Positions 1,195 through 62,350 of a DNA stretch of 64,000 nt are shown piece by piece. The translations under genes and the position numbers were made by a program. The stretch's first letter is position 1, and each line of letters opens with the position of its first letter. The DNA comes from Escherichia coli (GTDB taxonomy: Bacteria > Pseudomonadota > Gammaproteobacteria > Enterobacterales > Enterobacteriaceae): the NCBI RefSeq assembly GCF_003018255.1, contig NZ_CP027440.1, one strand, 5' to 3'. Below the pieces are notes generated by a model. That model was given only the letters and a program-made list of their open reading frames with translations, was not told the DNA's origin and ran no database searches.

Positions 1195-3822
1195 TTATTC
1201 TTCTTCTGGCTCGTCGTCAACGTCCACTTCCGGAGCGATTTCATCGTCCCCTTCCGCGGCACTGCCGTCGATGGTATCCAGATCTTCCTCGTCAACCGGT
1301 TCAGCAACACGTTGCAGACCCACTACGTTTTCATCTTCCGCAGTACGGATGAGGATCACGCCCTGGGTGTTACGGCCCACGATGCTGATTTCCGAAACGC
1401 GAGTACGTACCAGCGTACCGGCATCGGTGATCATCATGATCTGGTCGCAGTCATCTACCTGCACCGCGCCAACCACTAAACCGTTACGTTCGGTAACCTT
1501 GATGGAGATAACCCCTTTCGTCGCACGCGACTTAGTCGGGTATTCCGCCACTGCGGTACGTTTACCATAACCGTTCTGCGTTGCGGTGAGGATTGCGCCA
1601 TCGCCACGAGGCACGATCAGAGAGACGACTTTATCGCCTTCGCCTAAACGAATACCGCGAACACCGGTGGTGTTGCAGCCCATCGCACGGACAGAAGACT
1701 CTTTAAAGCGCACCACTTTACCTTCGGCGGAGAACAGCATTACTTCGTCTTCGCCGCTGGTCAGGTCAACGCCGATCAGCTCATCGCCTTCAACCAGTTT
1801 GATCGCCACTTTACCGGCGGTACGCAGACGGTTGAACTCGGTGAGGACGGTTTTCTTCACAGTACCGTTAGCGGTCGCCATGAAGACTTTCACGCCTTCT
1901 TCAAACTCGGTCACCGGCAGGATCGCAGTGATACGTTCGTCCTGCTCCAGCGGCAGCAGGTTGACGATCGGACGACCACGCGCGCCACGAGTGGCTTCTG
2001 GTAACTGGTAGACCTTCATCGAATAGACGCGGCCACGGCTGGAGAAGCACAGAATATGGTCGTGGGTGTTCGCCACCAGCAGTCGGTCAATAAAGTCTTC
2101 TTCTTTAATACGTGCGGCAGATTTGCCTTTCCCGCCACGACGCTGCGCTTCGTATTCAGAAAGCGGCTGATACTTCACGTAGCCCTGGTGAGAGAGTGTT
2201 ACCACCACATCTTCCTGGGTGATTAGATCTTCCAGGTTGATGTCAGCGCTGTTGGCAGTGATTTCAGTACGACGTTTGTCGCCGAACTGTTCACGAACCA
2301 GCTCCAGCTCTTCGCGGATCACTTCCATCAGACGATCGGCACTGCCAAGAATACGCAGCAGTTCTGCGATCTGATCCAGCAGCTCTTTGTATTCGTCGAG
2401 CAGTTTTTCATGCTCAAGGCCGGTCAGTTTCTGCAAACGCAGATCCAGAATCGCCTGAGCTTGCTGTTCGGTCAGGTAGTACAGACCATCACGCACGCCG
2501 AACTCTGGCTCCAGCCATTCCGGACGCGCAGCATCATCGCCCGCACGTTCGAGCATGGCGGCAACGTTGCCCAGCTGCCACGGATTAGCCACCAGCGCAG
2601 TTTTCGCTTCTGCAGGCGTCGGCGCATGACGGATCAGTTCGATGATCGGGTCGATGTTCGCCAGCGCTACGGCTAATGCTTCAAGGATATGAGCACGATC
2701 GCGAGCTTTACGCAGTTCGAAAATAGTACGACGAGTCACCACTTCGCGGCGGTGACGAACAAACGCCGCGATGATGTCTTTCAGGTTCATGATCTTCGGC
2801 TGACCATGGTGCAATGCCACCATGTTGATACCGAAAGAAACCTGCAACTGGGTCTGGGAGTAGAGGTTGTTGAGCACAACTTCACCGACCGCATCGCGTT
2901 TCACTTCAATCACGATGCGCATACCGTCTTTGTCAGACTCGTCACGCAGCGCGCTGATGCCTTCCACGCGTTTTTCTTTTACCAGTTCCGCAATCTTCTC
3001 GATCAGGCGCGCTTTGTTTACCTGATACGGAATTTCGTGGACGATAATGGTTTCACGTCCGGTTTTGGCGTCAACTTCCACTTCAGCACGGGCGCGGATA
3101 TATACCTTGCCGCGACCGGTACGGTAAGCTTCTTCAATACCGCGACGACCGTTAATGATTGCCGCCGTCGGGAAGTCCGGCCCGGGGATGTGTTCCATCA
3201 GCCCTTCAATGCTGATGTCTTCATCATCGATATACGCCAGACAACCGTTGATGACTTCCGTCAAGTTGTGCGGCGGGATGTTGGTTGCCATACCTACGGC
3301 GATACCGGAAGAACCGTTCACCAGCAGGTTAGGAATTTTGGTTGGCATGACGTCGGGAATTTTTTCCGTGCCGTCATAGTTATCTACGAAATCGACCGTC
3401 TCTTTTTCGAGATCGGCCATCAGTTCATGGGCAATTTTCGCCAGACGGATTTCCGTATAACGCATTGCCGCCGCAGAGTCGCCGTCGATGGAACCGAAGT
3501 TACCCTGACCGTCTACCAGCATGTAACGCAGCGAGAATGGCTGCGCCATACGGACGATCGTGTCATAAACCGCCGAGTCACCATGGGGATGGTATTTACC
3601 GATTACGTCACCAACGACACGGGCAGATTTTTTATAGGCTTTGTTCCAGTCATTGCCTAGTACGTTCATGGCGTAAAGTACGCGACGGTGTACCGGCTTC
3701 AGGCCATCTCGGACATCTGGCAGCGCACGGCCAACAATGACCGACATCGCATAATCCAGATAGGAGCTCTTCAGCTCTTCCTCAATGTTGACCGGTGTAA
3801 TTTCTCTCGCAAGGTCGCTCAT
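1195..3822 (-). CDS. gyrA: DNA gyrase subunit A
   Basis: 875-aa ORF starting [17 protein letters not shown], with the GyrA active-site and QRDR region (..[20 protein letters not shown]..) and the acidic C-terminal tail DEPEEE. Confidence 0.97.
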
Positions 3823-3968
3823 CTAACCGCTATCCCTCTACTGTATCCCGGATTCAAAGGTCGCAAATTATAACACAGCCGCGCAGTTTGAGGTAAACCT
3901 ATACGCTTTATTCACATCCAATGCCTGATATACTCGTTTGTCTTGCCAATTACGGAGTAGAAGTGCCA

Positions 3969-4831: not shown

Positions 4832-7800
4832 TTACCATTTCACCGTCATCGACAAAAACCCTGCCGTCTGGGCAAAATCATCACTCCCTTTCTGCCACGC
4901 CACGCTGCCGCGCAGGGACACTCGCTGACTGATATTGCCCGTGACTCCCACTTTTATTTCACCCCGTTGCTTCACCCCATCGTCACTGATAGTGCTGCCA
5001 TCTTCTTCAATTTCCGTCGCATGGGGATCGTGATAATAATTCAGATCTAATGTTGGTATGACATGAACAGCGGTACGCCATTCGCTGTGTAAACCCAGCC
5101 GCGTCTGAATATCATCACCCTGCGATTGTGACACGCGCGCATGGTTAGCGGCGGTAAAATCATCCTGCTGCACGCCCTGATAAATCACCTGCGCCTGCGG
5201 TTCAATCACCACACCACGCCCCGGTAACCATTGATACCCGGCTTCCAGCGAGGCGATAATCCCCGACGAGTGGTAATGATCCACGCCATCGTCTTGTTCA
5301 GAAACATCATTGTTAAACCACGCATATTGCAGCCAGCTATCCAGCCAGACCCCCTGCTTCTGATTACCGTGCTGATACCAGCTTGAGGTCAGCCCAACGG
5401 CATAACCGTGGTTCTGGTTATCGGCGCGAGTTCCGCTCATATTCGAGCGGCTGTCGCCCTGGTTATCGCTGTAGCCACCAACAATCCCAAGCATCCACTC
5501 GCCATCATCACCCCAGTGCCTGCTAAACAGATCGCCGCTAAGCTGCACCGTAGAAGTGTCTTCATGCTGAGCCAGTTGCCCTGCCGCCGTGTAATGATAA
5601 CGCCCGCCGATAACGCGTAAATTCAGCGTCTGACCATCGCCACCAGCGTGATCGCGTCGCTCCATCACAAATGCCTGATTTGCCGCACGTAGGTTATTAA
5701 AATATCCACCAACTTTGGCATTCAACACCGGCTGGTAAGCAGGCGTAGGTCCAGGGTCGGGGGTTGGGTCGGGATCCGGCGTGGGATCAGGATCTGGAGT
5801 CGGGTCCGGATCGGGCGGCGGCGTCGGAGTGACTTCTTGCGATCGCAGATACCAGTCATTGTTATCTTCCACCAGCGTATAGTCATACGCCCCCATATTG
5901 ACGTAGCCGCTTCCTGCCAGACGGAACTGCGCATTGTTTTGAAACTGCGTGGGATCAGCTGCGAAATCAACCACTTTAATACCTGTAGATGTCGGCTCAC
6001 CAATACCCGTAATGGGGTTAATTACCACGGCCGTGTTGCCAGCAGTATTACCGTTCAATACCAGTTGGTCACTTGCCGAGTCATCGCCGTTTAATTCGCT
6101 GTCGAGCAGTAGCGTACCGCCGCCGGTATAATCACCATTTACCGTCAGCGTGTCGCCAGCGACGCCATTTTGCAGGCTAATCGCACCGGACGTATTGGTC
6201 AGATTGCCATTAACCGTCACGTCGGAAAGATAAGTCAGGCTGTCAGTTTCAAGGTTGGTATTAAGCTCGCCTGTCAGCGTCACGCCATCGGTGGCATTCA
6301 CCAACGTACCGTCGCCGCTAAACAGCGAGGCATCCAGCACCTGGTTCGTATCCTGCTGCGTCAATCGCAACACAGTACCATCGGTTATGTCGATATCGCC
6401 GCCAGAGGTGGCATCGATTGAGCGAATATCCTGATTTTGCCCGGTTTCAAAAACACCGTCTTCCCCCACCCACAGTGAAGAAACATAAGGAATAATATTC
6501 TCCGCTTCACCTTTTAGCGTTCCGTCCTCCACACGTACCGCAGACGTCGCAGTGCCGCTGGCGGTCAACTCCAGCGTACCGCCGCCACTTTTAGTCAACG
6601 TGCTTACGCTATCCAGTTGTTGCCCGGTACTATCCGCCATCAACCCGCCCCATTGCGTATCTACGCCATCCTCAACGTGTATTTCGCCATCAGCGCGCAT
6701 TTCAATATTCCTGCCCTGACCTGTTGTAGCCGAGCGAGTGTCAACATCAGTCGTCACATCCATTTCACTGTGTTGTTGGGGATCTGTGAAGATCACTGAA
6801 CGGTTGTAACTTGTGTCCCCCAATTGCGAATTATCGCTGACTTCAAGCGTACCGGAGGCGATTTGCGTATTACCGAGATAACCGTTGTTATTCGCCAGCG
6901 TTACGCGCTGATCCCCCGCATTAATGACGACATAAACGCCATTCTGGCTGGCATCACTGCCGCCAATATGTAAATCATCGCCACTGCTGATATCAACGAC
7001 ATCATTACTGCCAATCACTGTCCCCCCGCTGCCGCTGATTTGCAGACCGTCATTGTATGAGCTATCGCCATCCCAGGTGGTGAAATCAGAGAGATCCAAT
7101 ACTCCGCCATTTAGCACGATCGATTGCGGATCGCTCTGCATTGCCCGTAAATCGGCCTGATTCCCCGCTAGCGACAATACGGCGTTATCTTCCACCACAA
7201 TATCGCCGGTTAATGCCATCGACTGCGCCCCTGTCAGGAGATAGCTGCCATCTTGCGCTACCGTCAACTGTCCTTCACCCTGAATCGAGCCGGAAAAACC
7301 GCCCTGGTTTACGGTAACATTGCCGCCTGCGTCGATATTCAAAATGCCATTAGCAAAACCGGTTAATGAGTGCACAAACGTTTGTTGTGTATTGCCAACA
7401 TTCAGTTCTGCCTGATACTCAGAATGAACAGTGCTGCCGACCATCAGACCAAAGCAATCCTGCGGATCGCTCTGACAGTGCGTGTCGCCGACATTCATTA
7501 ACTCATCGCTGCGCCCCAACGTCACCTCGCCATTCTGGATACTTATCTCGCCGGTAAACGCATTATTGTCGGCATTGAGGACTAACTCTCCCGCTCCCTC
7601 TTTAACGATGACTCCCGTTCCGGCAAGAGAATCAATCGCGCCATCGTTGCTGGTATTGCCTATTACCAGCGTTTTATCGGCGGCAATGTTAAATTCAGCC
7701 ACACTATGACCGATATACATAAAGCCCCCCGCCGCTGCCGTCGCCGAATGGTCATATCCCGAGGCGCTGTTATTTTCATCAATCATCACACCATTGTTTT

Positions 7801-8596
7801 GGTCATAATTATCATCAACAGAAATATCAATAAGATACGGGGATGTGGTGCTGCTGGTATAAATTGCTCCGCCATAACCTTCTGCATAGTTATTGGTAAA
7901 GGAGGTATTATTAATTATCGTTTTTCCTGAAAGATGTGTGTTATCCGTACTATTATCCGTAACATCAATAGCGCCGCCATCCCCATCACTATAACTTGTT
8001 GATGTATATGCCTGGTTATTATTAAAAGCATCATCACTTAAATAGTCGTCATTATTGATGGTATAAATTGCACCGCCTTTGCCGTCATTAGCGATGTTAT
8101 TGTGAAATACGGCGTTAGTGACACGTAAATCGGCGGCACCGGTATCATTGGTACCGGCAGAATAGATTGCTCCGCCATAGCCTCCTGCAACATTACTGTC
8201 GAAAATAACATTCGCAAGATTTATCGTTGAGTTTTCTTTAGCAAAGATAGCCCCACCATTATTATATTCGCCACTAACCGAGTTATCAGCAAACAGGGTC
8301 ATCCCTGTTTCATTTTGTGGTGAAATCGTAAATTCAGCACTTTGCTGCAAAAATACTGCGCCACCGCTGGCATTATTGGCCATACCCGAAAAAATCAACC
8401 ATTGCCCATCCGCGATGCTCCAGTCCTGCATATTGCCCGAAAGGCTTTGCCTGCTGGCCTGACAGTTCGCTTTGATATCATATCCCTGGCATGAATCGAT
8501 GACCGCTGCGGCACCGTTACCAGAGAAAAGAGATGCAATCATTGACGGGAGTAAAGATAAATACTCCTTGCGTAGAAAGATAATCCGCATATTCAT
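4832..8596 (-). CDS. yfaL: AIDA-I-type autotransporter adhesin (passenger with beta-helix repeats, Pro-rich linker, C-terminal beta-barrel)
   Basis: 1254-aa ORF with an N-terminal signal peptide (true start may be the Met 2 codons in, at 8590), repetitive GGAIY / N-rich passenger, a TPDPDP linker and a C-terminal barrel domain ending ..FLSMTVKW. Confidence 0.9.
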   Translation of the reverse strand: MNMRIIFLRKEYLSLLPSMIASLFSGNGAAAVIDSCQGYDIKANCQASRQSLSGNMQDWSIADGQWLIFSGMANNASGGAVFLQQSAEFTISPQNETGMTLFADNSVSGEYNNGGAIFAKENSTINLANVIFDSNVAGGYGGAIYSAGTNDTGAADLRVTNAVFHNNIANDGKGGAIYTINNDDYLSDDAFNNNQAYTSTSYSDGDGGAIDVTDNSTDNTHLSGKTIINNTSFTNNYAEGYGGAIYTSSTTSPYLIDISVDDNYDQNNGVMIDENNSASGYDHSATAAAGGFMYIGHSVAEFNIAADKTLVIGNTSNDGAIDSLAGTGVIVKEGAGELVLNADNNAFTGEISIQNGEVTLGRSDELMNVGDTHCQSDPQDCFGLMVGSTVHSEYQAELNVGNTQQTFVHSLTGFANGILNIDAGGNVTVNQGGFSGSIQGEGQLTVAQDGSYLLTGAQSMALTGDIVVEDNAVLSLAGNQADLRAMQSDPQSIVLNGGVLDLSDFTTWDGDSSYNDGLQISGSGGTVIGSNDVVDISSGDDLHIGGSDASQNGVYVVINAGDQRVTLANNNGYLGNTQIASGTLEVSDNSQLGDTSYNRSVIFTDPQQHSEMDVTTDVDTRSATTGQGRNIEMRADGEIHVEDGVDTQWGGLMADSTGQQLDSVSTLTKSGGGTLELTASGTATSAVRVEDGTLKGEAENIIPYVSSLWVGEDGVFETGQNQDIRSIDATSGGDIDITDGTVLRLTQQDTNQVLDASLFSGDGTLVNATDGVTLTGELNTNLETDSLTYLSDVTVNGNLTNTSGAISLQNGVAGDTLTVNGDYTGGGTLLLDSELNGDDSASDQLVLNGNTAGNTAVVINPITGIGEPTSTGIKVVDFAADPTQFQNNAQFRLAGSGYVNMGAYDYTLVEDNNDWYLRSQEVTPTPPPDPDPTPDPDPTPDPDPTPDPGPTPAYQPVLNAKVGGYFNNLRAANQAFVMERRDHAGGDGQTLNLRVIGGRYHYTAAGQLAQHEDTSTVQLSGDLFSRHWGDDGEWMLGIVGGYSDNQGDSRSNMSGTRADNQNHGYAVGLTSSWYQHGNQKQGVWLDSWLQYAWFNNDVSEQDDGVDHYHSSGIIASLEAGYQWLPGRGVVIEPQAQVIYQGVQQDDFTAANHARVSQSQGDDIQTRLGLHSEWRTAVHVIPTLDLNYYHDPHATEIEEDGSTISDDGVKQRGEIKVGVTGNISQRVSLRGSVAWQKGSDDFAQTAGFLSMTVKW
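5745..5830 (-). repeat. in-frame Pro/Asp/Thr tandem repeat (PTPPPDPDPTPDPDPTPDPDPTPDPGPTP) inside yfaL
   Basis: Near-perfect 18-nt periodicity on the coding strand; linker between the passenger and translocator domains. Confidence 0.7.
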
Positions 8597-22902: not shown

Positions 22903-23990
22903 TTAATGATGTGCCACGTCGGTCTGCGCAACAGTGCGATTTACACGCAGAGTGAAAATAATCAGCGAACCGATGACCGCCACCGCTGCCAGCGTCAGTA
23001 ATCCCGCCGCATCGCTGGAAAATAACGTTTCTGCTTTCACGCGCAGGATCGGGGCAATAAACCCGCCCACTGCACCAAACAGGTTTATAAAACCAATCCC
23101 CGCAGCCAGCGCCGTACCGGAAAGAAGCTGTGTCGGCATCGTCCAGAACACTGGCTGTACGGCAATAAACCCGATGGCTGCAACACACAGCGCAACGATC
23201 GCCAGTAATGTCAGCGCCGCGACATTACGCCGCTCGCCGGTTTTATCGGAATAGCGCGGAATAAGCCAGGTCCCAAACAAGGCCGCGACCCACGGAATGG
23301 CGGTGACCACCGACGCCGTAAAGCCCACTTTTGTCCCCAACAATGCAGCAACCTGCGTCGGCAGGAAGAAAATTAATCCGTAAACCGCCACCTGAATGGT
23401 CAGGTAGATAATCGCCAGTTGCCAGACTCGGCCATTACGCAGCGCATCGCTCAATCGAGAAGTCACTTTCTGTTGTTCTTCACTTGCCAGTTGGTTGATA
23501 AGCAACGTTTTTTCTTCTTTACTCAGAAAACGTGCCTGCTCCGGCGTGTCATCAAGCCAAAAGAATGTGAATACCCCAGCGCCGACTGCCAGCAATCCTT
23601 CAATCACAAACATCCAGAACCAGCCGGGATGCCCCATAAATCCATGCATCTCCAGCAGCGCGCCGGAAAGCGGTGATCCCAGTGTTAACGCCAACGGTGC
23701 GCCCATATAGAACAGCCCCATAATGCTGGCGCGATTACGCTGCGGAAACCATTGCGAGGTGAGATAAATCATACCAGGGAAGAACCCGGCCTCCGCAGCA
23801 CCAAGCAGAGTACGAACGATCAGAAATTTCGCTTCAGTATCGGCCCATGCCATGGCTGCCGAAAGAAATCCCCACAGCAGTGTTGTCGTACCAATCCAGG
23901 TTCTTGCCCCCAGTTTGCGCATCAAAAGATTCGCCGGAACACCCAGAAACGCATATACCACAAAGAAAATGCCTGCTCCCAGACCAGCCC
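22903..23990 (-). pseudogene. rhmT: L-rhamnonate transporter (ACS-family MFS), N-terminally truncated
   Basis: ORF 22903-24039; the MFS sequence begins only at ..GLGAGIFFVVYAFLGVPANLLMRKLGAR (the TM2 region). About 50 N-terminal residues including TM1 are missing, and the 5' end of the ORF overlaps rhmR' in another frame. Confidence 0.55.
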
Positions 23991-24464
23991 TTCGATAATA
24001 CTTTGCTGTACAGCTGCAGGTTGCCAGGCAAGCAGGCATTTACCTATTCCGGAGCGATAAAGCGAAAGGCTTTTTCCTTCATGGGAACGCACGCTGATAG
24101 TGGCTGATGACTCCACTTTCAAAATGTAATAAGCGCTGCCGTTATCAATAATCCCCAGGTGACATAACAGCCCAGTGGTATCCATCAGTTGCGTCAAACG
24201 CGGTCGAGCCAGTTCCCGGAGATCCATCTTGCTTAACGCATGACCGGAAAGCTCCACCAGCCTGGTCCACAAACAAAAATTTTCCTGGTGATCAAGGCTA
24301 AGAAAACGCTGACGCCTGAGTTCATTAAGCAGCAAATAGGCCGTGCTTTTAGGGATCCCCAATGTGTCAATGATCGTCGCAGCACTACAGGGGCCAATGC
24401 GGGCAATCAAATTGAGAATATCAATAGCCCGTGTCAGGGCGGGAACTTTGCTTGATTCCAACAT
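23922..24464 (-). pseudogene. rhmR: IclR-family transcriptional regulator, C-terminally truncated (180 aa versus about 260 expected)
   Basis: N-terminal IclR HTH (ALTRAIDILNLIARIGPCSAATIIDTLGIPKSTAYLLLNEL); the effector domain ends prematurely in ..WYMRFWVFRRIF*; overlaps the rhmT' ORF by about 118 nt. Confidence 0.55.
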
Positions 24465-49934: not shown

Positions 49935-51776
49935 TCAACGCAGTACCATCAACAGTGCCAGCACCACGACCGCACCGATGCTCATGGATGCCACATACCA
50001 GCGCAGATAACCGTTCTCGCTTAACAGCAGACCTTTACCTGCAAAGCGGGAAAGGACAGCCGGGATGTTCATCATTGAGTTCAGCGGATCGCGTTTCAGC
50101 AACCAGGCAATACCCAGGAACGGCTTGACGAACACTTTGTCGTACAGCCAGTCAAAGCCCCAGGCGTTGTACCACCAGGTACCCAGCAGACGGCCCGGCG
50201 CACTGTTGGCGATGGAGGTCACCAGAGTACGTTTACCCAGCCACAGCCAGGCAGCCAGCAGAATGCCGACCACCGCGACCACGCCAGAGGTAATTTCCAG
50301 GGTCAACATGCTGCCGTGCGCCAGTTCCGTCGTTTGCGGAAGCACGCCCTGCAGCGGCGGTACAATCAGTGCGCCAACGAAGGTGGAAAGGATCAGCAGC
50401 ACAATCAGCGGCAGGCTGTGAGTTACCCCTTTCACGGCGTGAGCGTGAATTTGTTCTTTTCCGTGGAAGACGATGAAAATCATACGGAAGGTGTAGAGCG
50501 AGGTCATAAACGCACCGACCAGACCTGCCACCATCAGATTGATATGACCATTCGCCATCGCACCCGCGAGGATCTCATCCTTACTGAAGAAGCCCGCAGT
50601 GACCAGCGGCAGTGCCGACAGTGCTGCGCCGCCCACCAGGAAGCAGAGATAAACCAGCGGAATAGATTTACGCAGACCGCCCATCTTGAAGATGTTCTGT
50701 TCGTGATGGCAGGCCAGAATGACGGAACCGGATGCCAGGAACAGCAGCGCTTTAAAGAACGCGTGGGTCATCAAGTGGAAAATCGCCGCATCCCATGCCT
50801 GCACGCCAAGCGCGAGGAACATGTAGCCAATCTGGCTCATGGTAGAGTAAGCGAGAACACGTTTGATATCGGTCTGTACCAGCGCCGCAAAACCGGCCAG
50901 CAGCAGCGTAACCGCCCCGACAATGCCCACCAGATGCAGAACTTCCGGCGTCATCAGGAACAGGCCGTGGGTACGAGCGATCAGGTAGACACCCGCGGTT
51001 ACCATCGTTGCGGCGTGGATCAGCGCGGAGACAGGCGTCGGGCCCGCCATCGCGTCGGCAAGCCATGTCTGCAACGGCAACTGCGCAGATTTACCGACCG
51101 CACCGCCCAGCAGCATCAGCGTCGCCCACATCAGCATGTTATTGCCGTCAGCAAAGTGCGCTGGTGCCAGTTCCACCATTTCGCGGAAGTTCAGGGTGCC
51201 CAGTTCGTTGTAAAGAATGAACAGCGCGAAAGCGAGGAACACGTCACCCACACGGGTCACGACGAACGCTTTCATTGCCGCTGCGCCATTCTTCGGATCG
51301 GTGTAATAGAAACCGATCAGCAGATAGGAGCACAGGCCCACGCCTTCCCAGCCGAGGTACATCAACAGTAGGTTATCGGCGAGAACCAGAACTACCATGC
51401 TGGCGATGAACAGGTTGGTGTAAGCGAAGAAGCGAGAGTAGCCCTCTTCTCCGCGCATATACCAGGAGGCATACATGTGAATAAGGAAACCCACACCAGT
51501 GACCACTGAGAGCATGGTCAGCGACAGGCCGTCCAGCACCAGATTGAAACCAATGTTAAAGTCGCCTACCGACATCCACGTCCACAGCGGCTGGCTGTAT
51601 GCCTGCTCACCGTTAGCGAAGAAGTCAACGCCGATAAAGGCGGTTACCAGCGCCGCCAGGCCCACAGAGCCAACGCCGACGATCGCCGAGACGTTTTCAG
51701 ACCAGCGCCCACGGGAGAACGCCAGCAGGACGAAGCCAATCAATGGCAAAATAATGGTTAAGGCAAGCATGTTCAT
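49935..51776 (-). CDS. nuoL: NADH:quinone oxidoreductase subunit L
   Basis: 613-aa antiporter-like subunit. Confidence 0.96.
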
Positions 51777-52075
51777 CCGCGCATCTCACTTACTGAATCG
51801 ATGTTCAGGTTCTGGCGACGACGGTGAAGTTGCAGCAGCAGCGCAAGGCCGATACTCGCTTCCGCCGCCGCGAGGCTGATGGCGAGAATGTACATCACCT
51901 GACCGTCGGTCTGGCCCCAGTAGCTTCCGGCGACCACAAAGGCCAGCGCAGAGGCGTTAATCATGATTTCCAGACCAATCAGCATAAACAGCAGATTGCG
52001 ACGGATAACCAGACCGGTTAAGCCAAGAACGAATAAGATTGCCGCGAGGATCAGTCCATGTTGTAAGGGGATCAT
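51773..52075 (-). CDS. nuoK: NADH:quinone oxidoreductase subunit K
   Basis: 100-aa 3-TM subunit. Confidence 0.93.
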
Positions 52076-52626
52076 GCGTGCTCCTCCGTTTTTCTTTTCG
52101 CGCTGTCGTCTTTACGATTGCTCAGCACTTCACCCGCACGCTCTTCACGACCGACGTGGAAGGCCACAACCAGACCCGCGAGCAGCAGCATAGAAGCCAG
52201 TTCCACCGCCAGTACGTAAGGCCCGAACAGCGTAATACCCACTGCTTTAGCACTGATTGGCGTACCGTCGATACCCTGATCATTAACACCAAGGATGGCG
52301 TAAACAATCACCACCAGCATGATGGCCGACAAAATCGCCGGACCAATCCACACCTGCGGTTTCAGCCACTGGCGTTCCTGTTCGATTTCTGAACCGCCCA
52401 GGTTGAGCATCATCACCACGAACACGAACAGCACCATAATGGCACCCGCGTAGACGATAATTTCCAGCGCACCGGCGAAGTAAGCGCCCAGTGAGAAGAA
52501 CACCCCAGAAATCGCCAGCAGCGAAATAATCAGGTACAGCAGCGCGTGTACCGGATTGGTATGGGTGATCACTCGCAAGGTCGCAAGTATGGCTATCAGG
52601 CCACAGATATAAAAAGCGAACTCCAT
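52072..52626 (-). CDS. nuoJ: NADH:quinone oxidoreductase subunit J
   Basis: 184-aa ORF. Confidence 0.93.
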
Positions 52627-52637
52627 TGCCCCTCTCC

Positions 52638-53180
52638 TTACGGTAACAGGCTCTTGACGTCGATAGGCTTGGCTTCGTTCTCTGCTTCGCCCTTATCTTT
52701 GCCGTCGATTGCCATACCTGCCATCCGGTAGAAGTTATATTCCGGGTATTTGCCCGGACCGGAGATCAGCAGATCCTCTTTCTCGTAAACCAGATCCTGG
52801 CGCTTGTATTCCCCCATTTCGAAATCCGGGGTTAACTGAATCGCCGTGGTCGGACAGGCTTCTTCGCACAGACCACAGAAAATGCAGCGTGAGAAGTTGA
52901 TGCGGAAAAATTCCGGATACCAGCGACCGTCTTTGGTTTCTGCTTTTTGCAGCGAGATACAGCCGACCGGGCAGGCTACCGCGCAGAGGTTACAGGCTAC
53001 GCAACGCTCTTCGCCGTCCGGATCGCGGGTCAGAACGATACGACCACGATAACGGGGCGGCAGATAGACCGGCTCTTCCGGGTACATTCGCGTTTCGCGT
53101 TTGGCGAACGCGTGCAGGCCGATCATCCAGATACTACGAACCTGGGTGCCGAAACCTACTAACAATTCTTTTAAGGTCAT
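52638..53180 (-). CDS. nuoI: NADH:quinone oxidoreductase subunit I (2x[4Fe-4S])
   Basis: 180-aa ORF with two CxxCxxCxxxCP motifs. Confidence 0.95.
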
Positions 53181-53194
53181 GGTCTTATTGCCCC

Positions 53195-54172
53195 TTATTG
53201 CGCCTGCCAGAGAATGACAGCCGCCGTTACCAGCAAGTTGATCAGCGTCAGCGGCAGGCAGATTTTCCAGCCGAAGGACATTACCTGGTCATAACGCGGA
53301 CGCGGTAACGACGCACGAATCAAAATGAACATCATCATAAAGAACGCGGTTTTCAGCGCGAACCAGATGAATGGCGGTAACAACGGGCCTTGCCAGCCAC
53401 CGAAGAACAGCGTCACCATCAGTGCAGAGATGGTCACAATCCCGATGTATTCGCCCACGAAGAACAGACCGAACTTCATGCCGGAATATTCAATGTGGTA
53501 ACCATCCGCCAGTTCCTGCTCGGCTTCCGGCTGGTCAAACGGGTGACGGTGACACACCGCCACGCCCGCGATGGCAAAGGTAATAAAACCAAAGAATTGC
53601 GGGATGACGTTCCACACATGCGCCTGGCTGTTGACGATGTCGGTCATGTTGAATGAACCGGCCTGCGCCACCACGCCCATCAGGGAAAGCCCGAGGAACA
53701 CTTCGTAGCTCAGGGTCTGCGCAGAAGCACGCATCGCACCCAGCAGCGAGTATTTGTTGTTACTTGACCAGCCCGCAAACAGCACCGCGTAAACCGCCAG
53801 ACCGGCCATCATCAGGAAGAACAAAATCCCGATGTTCAGGTCGGCAACCACCCAACCCGGACTGACTGGCACAATCGCAAAGGCCAGCAGCAGCGAGGTA
53901 AAGGCAATCATCGGTGCCAGGGTAAAGATGACGCGATCCGAGAATTTCGGGATCCAGTCTTCTTTAAAGAACATCTTGATCATGTCCGCGACCAGCTGGA
54001 GCGAACCGCCCCAGCCAACACGGTTAGGTCCGTAACGGTTCTGGAACAGACCCAGCAGGCGACGTTCGCCAAAGCTCATGAATGCCCCACAGGTGACAAC
54101 CACCAGCAGGATCACCACCGCTTTGAGGATGGTCAGCAGGATCTCAATCAGTTCCGGTGATATCCAACTCAT
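53195..54172 (-). CDS. nuoH: NADH:quinone oxidoreductase subunit H
   Basis: 325-aa polytopic subunit. Confidence 0.95.
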
Positions 54173-56895
54173 TGTTGTGCCTCCTTGAGATCCTCAAGAT
54201 GCGCGCCAGCCAGTACCGGAGCAATGCCGGACATACCCATCGGCAAGCCCACCTGCCCTGCCGTCAGTCCTTCGGCGATTTCAACCGGCAGCGTGACCGT
54301 GTTGCCATCGTAACTAAAGGAGACGCGTGTACCCGCGTTCACACCCAACTTCGCGGCATCCGCTGGGTTGAGTTTGATGTACGGCTGCGGCATACGGCTC
54401 TGGAAGACCGGAGCACGCTGTGACAATTCATCGCTACCAAACAGGTGGTAGTACGGCGCGATACGCCATTTCCCGTCCTGCGGCTGGAAGCGTGCCGGTA
54501 CGCTGGTGAAGTAATCCAGACCATTTTCGCTGGTTTCAAACAGACGCACGCCCGGATCGCCAAAGCGCAGTTTGCCGCCCACTTCGTCCTGGAATTTGTT
54601 CCACGCCTGCGGGGAGTTCCAGCCTGGCGCCCAGGCAAACGGCACTTGCGAACGGTGCGCGGTCGGCTGGTTGTTACCTTCCATCGAGAAGGTGAACATG
54701 GTGTCAATATCCTGCGGCTGACGCGGCTCATGAACGCTGATATTGGCGCGCATGGCGGTACGACCGCTGTAACGGTGCGGTTCACGGGCCAGTTTCTGCC
54801 CACGAATACGGAATGTCGCATCCGGCGCAGCATCTTTGATACCCGCCAGTTCCGGGATTTTCGCCACAACAGCGTCAATCACATGGTCGAGCTGCGTCCA
54901 GTCCACTTCACGGCTCAGCAAGGTGCTGTGCAGCGAGTGTAACCAACGCCAGCTTTCCAGCATGACAGTTTTGCTGTCGTAATAAGCCGGATCGTAAACC
55001 TGGAAGAAACGTTGGGCACGGCCTTCGTTGTTAATCACCGTACCGTCGCTTTCAGCAAAGCTGGCAGCAGAAAGTACCAGATGGGCGTTTTCCATAATCG
55101 CTGTGCGTTGATGGTCAACCACCATCACCAGCGGCGCTTTAGCCAGCGCAGCATTCACGCGGGTAGCGGAAGCGTGACGATGCAGATCGTTTTCCAGCAC
55201 CACCACCGCGTCGGCGCGTCCGGTTTCCAGTTCGGTTAACGCTTCTTCAAGCGATCCACCGCCCATAATGCCCAGCCCCATGCTGTTGACGGAACGGGCA
55301 ATCATGGTGATACCGACGTCAGCGCCGCGACCTTTCAGGGCTTTCGCCACGTTAGCCGCAGCCTGAATCACTTCAGCGCTACCGGCGTTCGTCCCGGAGA
55401 TAATCAACGGTTTCTTCGCACCTGCCAGTGCCTGCACGATGACGTCGATTTTGCTTTGCAGCTCAGGTTCAATACCGTCAACCGCTGGCGCGGAGTTATC
55501 CAGCGCATGGGCGATGGCAAAACCTAAACGCGCCTGATCTTCAACCGGTGCGCGGTAAGTCCACGCCGCGATATCATCCAGACGGGTGTCATCAACGTTG
55601 GTAACAAACAGCGGATGCTTCGCACGTTGGCCGATGTTGAGGATTGCCGCAATCTGCCAGTCAGCCACTTTCTGTGCTGCCGCCATTTCGCGCGCTTTAC
55701 CTTTCACCGCCTGACGAACTGCCAGCGCGACGCGCGCGCCGGTCTGGGTAACGTCTTCGCCCAGCACCAGTACCGCATCGTAAGATTCGATTTCGCGCAG
55801 TGCCGGCGTATAAATGCCGCCTTCACGCAGCACTTTCAGCGCCAGTTGCAGACGTTCCTGCTCACCGTGAGCGATACCGGTGTAGAAGTTTTCTTCGCCC
55901 ACCAGCTCACGCAGCGCAAAGTTGCTTTCCACGCTGGCACGCGGAGAACCAATGCCGATCACTTTCTTCGACTGACGCAGAATATCTGCCGCGCCCTGCA
56001 TTGCCTGTTCGGCGTTGAGGGTAATGAAATCATCGCCACGACGCTGTACTGGCTGACGCGGACGATCTTTCAGGTTGACGTAACCGTAACCGAAACGACC
56101 ACGGTCGCAGAGGAAGTAGTGGTTTACCGTACCGTTGTAACGGTTTTCGATACGACGCAGTTCGCCGTAACGCTCGCCGGGGCTGATGTTACAGCCGATG
56201 GAACATTGCTGGCAGATGCTCGGCGCAAACTGCATATCCCATTTACGGTTGTAACGCTCGGAGTGCGTTTTGTCGGTGAATACGCCGGTCGGGCAAATCT
56301 CGACCAGATTACCGGAAAATTCGCTTTCCAGCGTGCCGTCTTCCGGGCGACCGAAGTAGACGTTGTCGTGCGCACCGTAAACGCCCAGGTCCGTGCCGTC
56401 AGCGTAATCTTTGTAGTAACGCACGCAGCGGTAGCAGGCGATGCAGCGGTTCATTTCGTGAGAGATGAATGGCCCCAAATCCTGATTACGGTGGGTACGT
56501 TTGGTGAAACGGTAGCGACGGAAGCTGTGTCCAGTCATCACAGTCATATCCTGAAGATGGCAGTTACCGCCCTCTTCACATACCGGACAGTCGTGCGGGT
56601 GGTTGGTCATTAACCACTCGACCACACTTTCACGGAACTGTTTCGCTTCTTCATCGTCAATGGAAATAAAGGTGCCATCGGAAGCCGGTGTCATACAGGA
56701 CATCACCAGGCGACCACGCGTGTCTTCCGCGTTTTGGTATTGCTTCACCGCACACTGGCGGCAAGCACCGACGCTTCCCAGCGCCGGATGCCAGCAAAAG
56801 TAAGGAATATCAAGGCCCAGAGACAGACAAGCTTCCAGCAAGTTGTCCGCTCCGTTGACCTCGTATTCTTTGCCGTCTACATGAATTGTAGCCAT
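54169..56895 (-). CDS. nuoG: NADH:quinone oxidoreductase subunit G
   Basis: ORF 54169-56901; start [15 protein letters not shown] preferred; N-terminal Fe-S cysteine clusters and a molybdopterin-like domain. Confidence 0.95.
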
Positions 56896-56947
56896 TAGCA
56901 TGCTTCCAGTTTTCTCAGTCAGAGACTGAGCGTTAATCGAAATTCGG

Positions 56948-58285
56948 TTACCAGCGCTCTTTCAGCAGGTTCGGCTGAATCCCATTAATCAAATGGGTAT
57001 TGCTGAACGGCTGTTTGATTCCCGCCTCAAATTCTTCGCGGAAATATTTGATGGCGCTCTGTAACGGCTCCACTGCACCAGGTGCGTGGGCACAGAAAGT
57101 TTTACCCGGGCCTAAGAATCGACACAGTTGCTCAAGTGTTTCGATATCGCCCGGCTGACCTTCGCCACGCTCCAGCGCACGCAGAATTTTCACGCTCCAC
57201 GGCAGACCGTCGCGGCACGGCGTACACCAGCCACAGGACTCACGGGCGAAAAACTCTTCCAGGTTACGCACCAGCGACACCATGTTGATCTCATGGTCAA
57301 CCGCCATCGCCAGCGCCGTACCCATACGGCTTCCCGCTTTACCGATACTTTCGAATTCCATCGGCAGATCAAGGTGCGCTTCGGTCAGGAAGTCGGTGCC
57401 AGCGCCGCCTGGCTGCCAGGCTTTGAATTTCAGACCGTCACGCATACCACCGGCGTAATCTTCGAGGATCTCGCGTGCGGTGGTGCCGAATGGCAGTTCC
57501 CACAGGCCCGGATTTTTCACCCGACCGGAGAAGCCCATCAGCTTGGTGCCAGCATCTTTACTTTTCGAGATGTTCTGATACCACTCCACGCCGTTAGCGA
57601 GGATCGCCGGAACGTTACACAGGGTTTCGACGTTATTGACACAGGTCGGTTTGCCCCATGCACCGGAGGTTGCCGGGAATGGAGGCTTCGAGCGAGGGTT
57701 AGCGCGACGCCCTTCCAGGGAGTTGATTAACGCTGTTTCTTCACCGCAGATGTAGCGCCCAGCCCCGGTATGGACGAACAATTCGAAGTCGAAACCTGTT
57801 CCCATAATGTTTTTGCCAAGCAGACCCACTTCGGTGGCTTCGGCAATGGCACGGCGCAGATTCACTGCCGCTTCGATATACTCGCCACGCAGGAAGATGT
57901 AGCCACGGTACGCTTTCAGCGCAAACGCGGAGATGAGCATACCTTCCACCAGCAGGTGCGGCAGTTGTTCCATCAGCAGGCGGTCTTTATAGGTGCCCGG
58001 CTCCATTTCATCGGCGTTACACAGCAGGTAACGGATGTTCATGGATTCGTCTTTCGGCATCAGGCTCCATTTCAGGCCGGTAGAAAAGCCCGCGCCGCCG
58101 CGCCCTTTCAGACCAGCGTCTTTTACCTGATTAACGATTTCGTCCGGAGACAGCCCGGTCAGCGCCTTACGCGCGCCTTCGTAACCGTTTTTGCTGCGAT
58201 ATTCGTCCAGCCACACTGGCTGTTTGTCATCGCGCAGACGCCAGGTCAGCGGATGCGTTTCGGGAGTACGGATAATGTTTTTCAT
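56948..58285 (-). CDS. nuoF: NADH:quinone oxidoreductase subunit F (FMN, NADH site)
   Basis: 445-aa ORF. Confidence 0.96.
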
Positions 58286-58782
58286 TTATACCGCTCCAGC
58301 AGTTCAGGGATCGCTTCCGGGGTCAGATGCGCGTGAGTGTCCTCATCGATCATCATGTTTGGCCCTTTGTCGCAGTTCCCCAGGCAGCAAGTTGGCAGCA
58401 GCGTAAAGCGGCCATCAAATGTCGTTTGCCCTGGTTTGATGTTCAGCTTTTTCTCCAGCGCCGCCTGAATACCCTGGTAACCGTTGATGTGACAGACCAC
58501 GCTGTCGCAATAACGGATCACATGGCGACCAACCGGCTGGCGGAAGATCTGGCTATAGAACGTTGCCACGCCTTCGACGTCGCTCGCCGGAATACCCAGC
58601 ACATCGGCGATCGCGTGGATCGCGCCATCCGGCACCCAGCCACGCTGCTTCTGAACGATTTTCAGCGCTTCAATGGACGCCGCACGCGGGTCTTCGTAGT
58701 GGTGCATCTCGTGCTCAATCGCTTCACGCTCTGCCGCACTCAGCTCAAAAGCCTCGGTTTGTGGTTGTTGATTCTCGTGCAT
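58282..58782 (-). CDS. nuoE: NADH:quinone oxidoreductase subunit E (2Fe-2S)
   Basis: 166-aa ORF. Confidence 0.95.
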
Positions 58783-58784
58783 AA

Positions 58785-60587
58785 TTAGCGGTCCACATCT
58801 GACATAACAAAATCGATACTGCCCAGATAAACAATCAGGTCAGACACCAGGCTGCCGCGGATCGCCGCCGGAATTTGCTGCAAATGCGCATAACTCGGCG
58901 TACGGATACGGGTGCGATAACTCATGGTGCTACCGTCGCTGGTCAGGTAGTAACTGTTGATCCCCTTGGTCGCCTCAATCATCTGGAAAGATTCATTGGC
59001 TGGCATCACCGGACCCCACGACACTTGCAGGAAGTGGGTGATCAGGGTTTCGATATGTTGCAGCGTGCGCTCTTTCGGCGGCGGCGTGGTCAGCGGATGA
59101 TCCGCTTTGAACGGGCCTTCCGGCATGTTGTTGAGGCACTGCTCAAGAATGCGCAGACTCTGGCGCAGCTCTTCCACTTTCAGCATTACGCGGGTGTAGC
59201 AGTCAGAAACACCACCACCCACCGGGATTTCAAAGTCGAAGTTTTCATAGCCAGAATAAGGACGCGCCTTACGCACGTCGAAGTCGATCCCGGTGGCGCG
59301 CAGGCCCGCGCCAGTGGTGCCCCACTCCAGCGCCTCTTTCGCGCCATAGGCGGCAACGCCCTGGGAACGACCTTTCAGAATGGTGTTTTGCAGCGCCGCT
59401 TTCTCGTAAGACGCCAGACGTTTCGGCATCCAGTCGAGGAACTCACGCAGCAGGCGATCCCAGCCACGCGGCAGGTCGTGCGCTACACCGCCAATACGGA
59501 ACCACGCCGGGTGCATACGAAAACCCGTGATCGCTTCCACCAGATCGTAAATTTTCTGACGATCGGTAAAGGCGAAGAACACTGGCGTCATCGCGCCGAC
59601 GTCCTGAATAAAGGTGGAGATATACAGCAGGTGACTGTTGATGCGGAACAGTTCGGAGAGCATTACGCGAATGACGTTAACGCGATCCGGCACGGTGATC
59701 CCGGCCAGTTTCTCTACCGCCAGCACGTAAGGCATTTCGTTAACGCAGCCGCCGAGGTATTCGATACGGTCGGTATACGGAATGTAGCTGTGCCAGGACT
59801 GGCGTTCGCCCATTTTCTCCGCACCACGGTGGTGGTAGCCGATGTCTGGTACGCAGTCGACAATTTCTTCGCCATCAAGCTGCAAAACGATGCGGAAAGC
59901 CCCGTGCGCCGACGGGTGGTTCGGGCCGAGGTTGAGGAACATGAAGTCCTCGTTTTCGGTGCCGCGCTTCATCCCCCACTCTTCCGGTTTGAAGGTCAGG
60001 GCTTCCATCTCCAGGTCCTGTTTGGCTTTGGTCAGCTCAAACGGCGAGAATTCGGTAGCGCGCGCCGGATAATCTTTACGCAGCGGGTGACCTTTCCAGG
60101 TTTGCGGCATCATGATGCGGCGCAGGTTCGGGTGACCGTCGAAAGTAATGCCAAACAGATCCCAGGTTTCACGCTCATACCAGTTAGCGTTCGGGAACAG
60201 TTTGGTGAAGGTCGGTACGTGCAGGTCGTTTTCTGCCAGCGCCACCTTCAGCATGATGTCGCGGTTACGATCGATAGAAATCAGATGGTAGAAAACGGAA
60301 AAATCCGCGGCAGGTAACCCTTCGCGGTGTGTGCGCAGACGTTCGTCCATGCCGTGTAAGTCAAACAGCATGACGTAAGGTTTCGGCAGTTTCTTTAAGA
60401 AATCGCCCACTTCCAGTAATTGTTCACGCTTGATCCACACAACGGGAACCCCGGTGCGAGTCGCCTGAACAGTAAAGGCATCCGGCCCAAAACGGTTGCG
60501 CAGTTCGCCAATCACCGGATCATCAAGATGATCGCGGGTCTGCCAGGCGGGTTCTTGCGCGGTTAAGTCGGTCATATTGTTCACCAT
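58785..60587 (-). CDS. nuoC: NADH:quinone oxidoreductase fused subunit C/D
   Basis: 600-aa fused NuoCD characteristic of E. coli (start may be 4 codons in, at MTDLTAQ). Confidence 0.95.
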
Positions 60588-60680
60588 TGCAAATGGTCCG
60601 TGGTGACTGTCGGCGCAGTAAGCTTCGCGAAATAGATTTAGGAATAAGCGAAGAAAAATTCCTTTGCCGACAGGCGCAAA

Positions 60681-61343
60681 TTAAATCTCGTCAGGTGTAC
60701 GCAGGTTGGTTACGGCAATGCGTTCACCGCGCTTGCGTTCGCGCTCTGATTGCATATTGGCGCGATAAACGCCCTGATCGCCAACCACCCAGGAGAGCGG
60801 ACGACGTTCTTTACCGATAGATTCCTGCAACAGCATCAGTGCCTGCATGTACGCTTCAGGACGCGGAGGGCAGCCCGGGATATACACATCAACCGGGATG
60901 AATTTATCGACGCCCTGCACAACGGAATAAATATCGTACATACCGCCGGAGTTGGCACAGGCACCCATTGAGATAACCCATTTTGGTTCCAGCATCTGGT
61001 CATACAGACGCTGAATAACCGGTGCCATTTTTGTAAAGCAGGTTCCTGCAACGACCATCAGGTCAGCCTGACGCGGCGAAGCTCGCAATACTTCTGCGCC
61101 AAAACGCGCCACGTCATGCACCGCGGTAAACGAAGTCACCATCTCAACGTAACAGCAGGAAAGACCGAAGTTATACGGCCAAATTGAGTTTTTACGACCC
61201 CAGTTAACCATGTCATTGAGCTTGCCCATAAACACGTTTTTATTAACTTCTTGCTCCAGAGGGTCGGTTACGATCTCCTGCTTTTGCAGGGGGTAACGGT
61301 CGTTCTCACCGTTGGGATCTATGCGGGTGAGCGTATAATCCAT
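60681..61343 (-). CDS. nuoB: NADH:quinone oxidoreductase subunit B
   Basis: 220-aa ORF with the CCxxE...C...CP N2-cluster motif. Confidence 0.95.
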
Positions 61344-61358
61344 CTTAATGCCTCGCGG

Positions 61359-61802
61359 TTAGCGTTGACGATTAGCGATACTGTTCGTTTCCGGGTTCAT
61401 ACGCTCGCGGCGTGAACGCGCGGGCGTCCAGTCCAGCGCGCCAATACGCACCAGATAAACCAGACCTGCCAGTAACACAAAAATAAAAATTGCAGCTTCC
61501 ACAAAGCCTACCCAGCCGCTTTCGCGGATAGAGGTTGACCATGCGAACAGATACAGCGCTTCAACGTCGAAGATAACGAAGAACATGGCCACCAGATAAA
61601 ACTTGGCGGACAGGCGTAAGCGGGCGGAGCCGACCGAGTCGATACCGGATTCAAACGGAACGTTTTTCGACCTTGCGCGTGCGCGACCGCCTAAAAACCA
61701 ACCGCCTACCAGCATCAGGCAACACAGGCCAATGGCAACGATAAGAAAGATAGCGAATGCCCAGTGATGAGCGATGACTTCAGTGGATGTTGACATACTC
61801 AT
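61359..61802 (-). CDS. nuoA: NADH:quinone oxidoreductase subunit A
   Basis: 147-aa 3-TM subunit; first gene of the operon. Confidence 0.93.
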
Positions 61803-62350
61803 TGCTTACTCATCAAAAGTAGCGCCAGATTCACTGCTCTTCACGGCAGATGGACGCCACATCGATTCATGGGGAGGAATAAAAAAAACCTTACAATCAC
61901 TGTAGAAATTCTTTTATACAGCTAATTGATGTGGTCTTTTACTCCTTTCTATAACCTTTTGTCAACTTTAACAAAAGTTTCTTCACATTAGTTTACATAA
62001 TATCAACACCATTAGCATTTAATGCCCTTTCACCCCAGATCCTTGACGACTCCAGGATAATTAGATGTTGTTGAATCGTGTCCGTTGTGAAGCAATGGAA
62101 AAAATACGGGTCTATTTTGACAGGAATTTGTGTCGATTCCTCCCCCCAAAAGAGAGTATTTTCTTGATCTGTGACACGCTTTTGTCATTCCATAACAAAA
62201 ACGCAGCAACAAATTTACGTATTTTTTAACATCATTGTAGCAGGTGATTTTTTTCAGGCGATTATTTGTGCGTTCGGGACGTGAATCTCTGGTGATTGAA
62301 AAATGAACAGTTTTGTACGTTCTGCACGATACGAGGAAGGCTTTTTACTA
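61803..62350 (-). promoter_or_regulatory. nuo operon promoter / long 5' leader region
   Basis: About 550 bp non-coding AT-rich region upstream of nuoA; individual regulator binding sites not mapped here. Confidence 0.45.

Follow-up and report, generated by a model that had tools for sequence, protein, structure and literature searches.

Codons 83 and 87 of gyrA are the two main fluoroquinolone-resistance positions, and the substitutions S83L and D87N/G/Y come first and count most among the chromosomal steps toward quinolone resistance. [quoted passage not shown] In E. coli gyrase, both Ser83 and Asp87 anchor the water-metal ion bridge to the Mg2+-chelated keto-acid of the quinolone (PMC9917921; PMC9953508). 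The two residues hydrogen bond to waters around a noncatalytic Mg2+ chelated by the fluoroquinolone keto-acid, the resulting bridge holds or positions the drug in the cleavage complex, and S83L and D87N/G/Y act by disrupting it. We analyzed a 64,000-nt stretch of E. coli DNA (the window) in which an initial annotation had described both codons as wild type.

The window carries an intact, ordinary E. coli gyrA as a minus-strand open reading frame (ORF). The gene and some of its parts are as follows.

1195..3822, minus strand: gyrA coding sequence, DNA gyrase subunit A, 875 codons plus stop with an ATG start (ORF list and translation)
3823..3922, minus strand: gyrA upstream region with a TATAAT hexamer about 45 nt 5' of the ATG, a putative promoter (read from the sequence)
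3457..3459, minus strand: codon 122, Tyr in the motif AAMRYTE, intact (read from the translation)
2125..2145, minus strand: GyrA box QRRGGKG, residues 560 to 566, in the C-terminal domain (read from the translation)

The open reading frame listing gave a single 875-amino-acid (aa) ATG ORF at this place, and translation over its full length revealed no frameshift and no premature stop. Tyr122 is the catalytic DNA-cleavage residue of GyrA. The product aligned collinearly from residue 1 to residue 875 with GyrA from E. coli as found in PDB 6rks. Residues 1 to 677 are the same as in this reference, and residue 678 is the sole difference between the two proteins (874/875 residues identical). The matched region is annotated as gyrA in 5,425 of 5,426 complete E. 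coli genomes, with 95 to 99.4% DNA identity. The neighbors are also those of annotated E. coli genomes, with yfaA downstream and ubiG divergent upstream, followed by yfaL, nrdAB, and yfaE.

The same ORF could be read as parC, the paralogue that encodes topoisomerase IV subunit A, or as a nonfunctional gyrA, in which case neither the codon numbers nor the conclusion on resistance would apply. GyrA and ParC do have a common N-terminal fold, and parC models also match the product. However, the parC_Gneg score of 581.5 is below that model's own cutoff of 628.9, whereas TIGR01063, the NCBIfam gyrA equivalog, reached 1309.7 bits, well above its cutoff of 877. The GyrA box QRRGGKG, which lies in the C-terminal beta-pinwheel domain and tells GyrA from ParC, where it is absent, is present in the product. 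The full-length identity to E. coli GyrA also argues against a paralogue or a broken copy, as do the conserved synteny and the number of gyrA copies, with a median of one place per complete E. coli genome. We consider this reading vanishingly improbable. A parC gene or a broken gyrA copy was refuted by the alignment to PDB 6rks, the profile scores, and the GyrA box, and the ORF is treated below as intact gyrA.

The quinolone-resistance positions of this gene were located by codon count and by comparison with the PDB 6rks reference.

3505..3624, minus strand: QRDR, codons 67 to 106, wholly wild type (identical to the PDB 6rks reference)
3574..3576, minus strand: codon 83, TCG, Ser, wild type (codon count)
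3562..3564, minus strand: codon 87, GAC, Asp, wild type (codon count)

When codons were counted on the minus strand from 3822, positions 3576-3574 proved to be codon 83 (TCG, Ser) and positions 3564-3562 codon 87 (GAC, Asp), just as the initial annotation had read them. Its frame, its start at 3822, and its coordinates were all exact, and the frame or coordinate error that it had named as a refutation was not found on translation. The residue context of codons 80 to 89 is H80-G-D-S83-A-V-Y-D87-T-I, and positions 3562 to 3576 belong to helix alpha-4, part of the domain of GyrA that binds and cleaves DNA. Positions 51, 67, 81, 82, 84, 106, 119, and 196 were checked one by one and carry the reference residues. 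Relative to PDB 6rks, no substitutions were found in residues 67 to 106 or at residues 51, 119, and 196. Because gyrA is a conserved essential gene, chance is not at issue for the reading of codons 83 and 87.

Because both bridge anchors, Ser83 and Asp87, and the remaining QRDR are unmutated, we predict that the gyrase encoded in the window is fully sensitive to the drug. Taken together, the reading of an intact E. coli GyrA with a wild-type QRDR and a quinolone-sensitive enzyme is almost certainly correct. Its identity, intactness, and residues were observed directly, and the drug sensitivity of the enzyme is predicted from published biochemistry and an allele genotype-phenotype table. The expectation of no gyrA-mediated quinolone resistance that accompanied the initial annotation is thus supported by wild-type Ser83 and Asp87, by the QRDR, by residues 51, 119, and 196, and by the mostly susceptible phenotype of the allele with D678E alone (see below). 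What is supported is a call of no gyrA-mediated resistance and not a call of a susceptible strain. The window bears on gyrA only, not on parC, parE, gyrB, plasmid-borne determinants, or efflux regulators, and therefore the overall susceptibility of the strain is not callable from it. By mapped gene content, none of qnr, aac(6')-Ib-cr, qepA, oqxAB, parC, parE, gyrB, marR, and acrR is located in the 64,000-nt window. For genotype-based resistance prediction, the gyrA locus adds no fluoroquinolone resistance, and the value of this result is practical only. It is a correct negative call at the most studied resistance site of E. coli and raises no new biological question; a wild-type quinolone site in gyrA is already known, a routine negative genotype and no discovery.

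We additionally examined how frequent the wild-type site is, using exact 30-nt probes across gyrA codons 80 to 89 against the 5,426 complete E. coli genomes. The wild-type probe with Val85 as GTT, which is the window's own sequence, matched 2,013 genomes, and the wild-type probe with Val85 as GTC matched 639. The corresponding probes for S83L+D87N matched 1,371 (GTT) and 331 (GTC) genomes. Codons 80 to 89 are therefore wild type in at least 2,652 of the 5,426 genomes (49%), and the classic double mutant S83L+D87N accounts for 1,702 (31%). The four probes leave 1,072 of the 5,426 genomes unplaced, comprising S83L alone, other changes at D87, and other synonymous backgrounds. The wild-type state is the commonest gyrA state in this collection, even though, on our assumption, clinical isolates are probably overrepresented in it. 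One gyrA copy in the collection sits on a plasmid-labelled record, and the S83L+D87N 30-mer also occurs at one plasmid-labelled place. The plasmid-labelled gyrA could be either a mislabelled replicon or a truly plasmid-borne resistant gyrA.

The single residue that departs from the reference lies outside the QRDR.

1789..1791, minus strand: codon 678, Glu where K-12 and PDB 6rks have Asp (D678E), outside the QRDR, in the C-terminal domain (alignment)

D678E is a common lineage polymorphism and a reported marker in Shigella sonnei and in ST405, ST38, and ST1193. The allele with D678E alone relative to MG1655 was found in 152 fluoroquinolone-susceptible E. coli genomes and 1 resistant genome (PMC7067475). 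In S. sonnei, D678E is the majority state whatever the phenotype, and the role of the substitution was said to need study (PMC10269460). It is conceivable that D678E is not fully neutral and that a change in the C-terminal domain, which wraps DNA, makes for slightly reduced susceptibility to quinolones or has a compensatory effect on fitness. Such an effect would fit the occurrence of D678E after stepwise enrofloxacin selection, where it was among the substitutions called resistance associated, without a causal test (PMC11721436), and its presence alongside S83L/D87N in resistant isolates of ST405, ST38, and ST1193 (PMC10638923). However, the 152:1 distribution of the D678E-only allele and the majority state in S. 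sonnei irrespective of phenotype both speak against it. The exact 875-aa GyrA sequence is also present in the public protein collection on at least 1,000 contigs, the pattern of a phylogenetic marker, and residue 678 lies beyond the GyrA chains of the gyrase-drug-DNA cleavage-core structures, which end near residues 500 to 525. We regard the listing of D678E as resistance associated (PMC11721436) as weak evidence; this listing and the remark on S. sonnei (PMC10269460) do not outweigh the 152:1 association with susceptibility. A non-neutral D678E is thus very unlikely, and we treat the substitution as a lineage polymorphism.

At the nucleotide level, gyrA differs from that of the near-best complete genome, FDAARGOS_1287, at 16 positions (99.4% identity), all of them synonymous. 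Thirteen of these 16 differences cluster in codons 507 to 578 (216 bp, window positions 2089-2304), and a 226-bp query covering 2083-2308 was found exactly in only 1 of the 5,426 complete E. coli genomes (strain DETEC-S792). This clustering suggests that gyrA is a mosaic allele with a short patch acquired by recombination at 2089-2304. That the imported patch together with D678E would subtly alter gyrase expression, C-terminal-domain function, or the quinolone response seems highly doubtful. Over the whole window, the highest identity that a complete E. coli genome reached was 98.7% for positions 1-25000, 99.4 to 99.5% for 25001-50000, and 100.0% for 50001-64000, and the best-matching strains differ between these three segments. 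No complete RefSeq E. coli genome identical across the whole window was found in the collections, which contain no Shigella genomes. The segment-wise identities fit a mosaic chromosome whose E. coli lineage has been sampled only sparsely. A Shigella origin was also considered, since D678E is common in S. sonnei, and may apply as well.

The gene content of the window was mapped from annotated E. coli genomes. The gene order is yfaA-gyrA-ubiG-yfaL-nrdAB-yfaE-inaA-glpQT-glpABC-rpnE-rhm-yfaYZ-nudI-ais, followed after ais by arnBCADTEF-pmrD-menECBHDF-elaBA-rbn-yfbLM-nuoN..A-lrhA. From gyrA through lrhA, the window is thus ordinary E. coli chromosome. A tRNA scan found no tRNA genes in the window, and Rfam gave no match in it other than the nuoG motif listed here together with the large adhesin gene near gyrA.

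56903-56945, minus strand: nuoG RNA motif RF01748, between nuoF and nuoG (Rfam, 50.3 bits against a gathering score of 33)
4832-8596, minus strand: YfaL/EhaC autotransporter adhesin, 1254 aa

The exact YfaL protein is rare, being present on only 13 Logan contigs (assemblies from read archives), whereas the neighboring GyrA allele is ubiquitous. The L-rhamnonate cluster is degraded, with a junction at about 23971-23982, within 22903-24464. Compared to strain JNE23-011, approximately 1.7 kb is gone, comprising the entire rhmD gene together with the 5' end of rhmT/yfaV and the 3' end of rhmR/yfaX, and the alignments flanking the junction share a 12-bp overlap. FDAARGOS_1287 has a similar rearrangement, with a truncated IclR pseudogene and rhmD missing between yfaU and yfaY. 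The gap between rbn and yfbL is only 355 bp (window positions 44779-45133). K-12 has the deubiquitinase gene elaD, of roughly 1.2 kb, between these two genes, and the closest annotated genome has an elaD pseudogene remnant of 111 nt there. Lineages of extraintestinal pathogenic E. coli are reported to lack elaD.

Compared to GyrA of E. coli K-12 (PDB 6RKS, 3NUH, and 1AB4), the window GyrA is likewise 875 aa long, with 874 residues in common. The QRDR, the catalytic Tyr122, the GyrA box, and the acidic C-terminal tail are alike in the two proteins, and both genes have yfaA downstream and ubiG divergent upstream. The two differ at residue 678, which is Asp in K-12 and Glu in the window. The "gyrA-1" allele of Hyun et al. 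2020 (PMC7067475) carries D678E with A828 unchanged, as in the window, when the two are compared by mutation pattern alone. The resistant alleles, S83L and S83L+D87N, are the same gene and often have the same background, and D678E is also present with S83L/D87N in ST405, ST38, and ST1193. In contrast to the window, which has TCG at codon 83 and GAC at codon 87, these resistant alleles have TTG and AAC at the respective positions.
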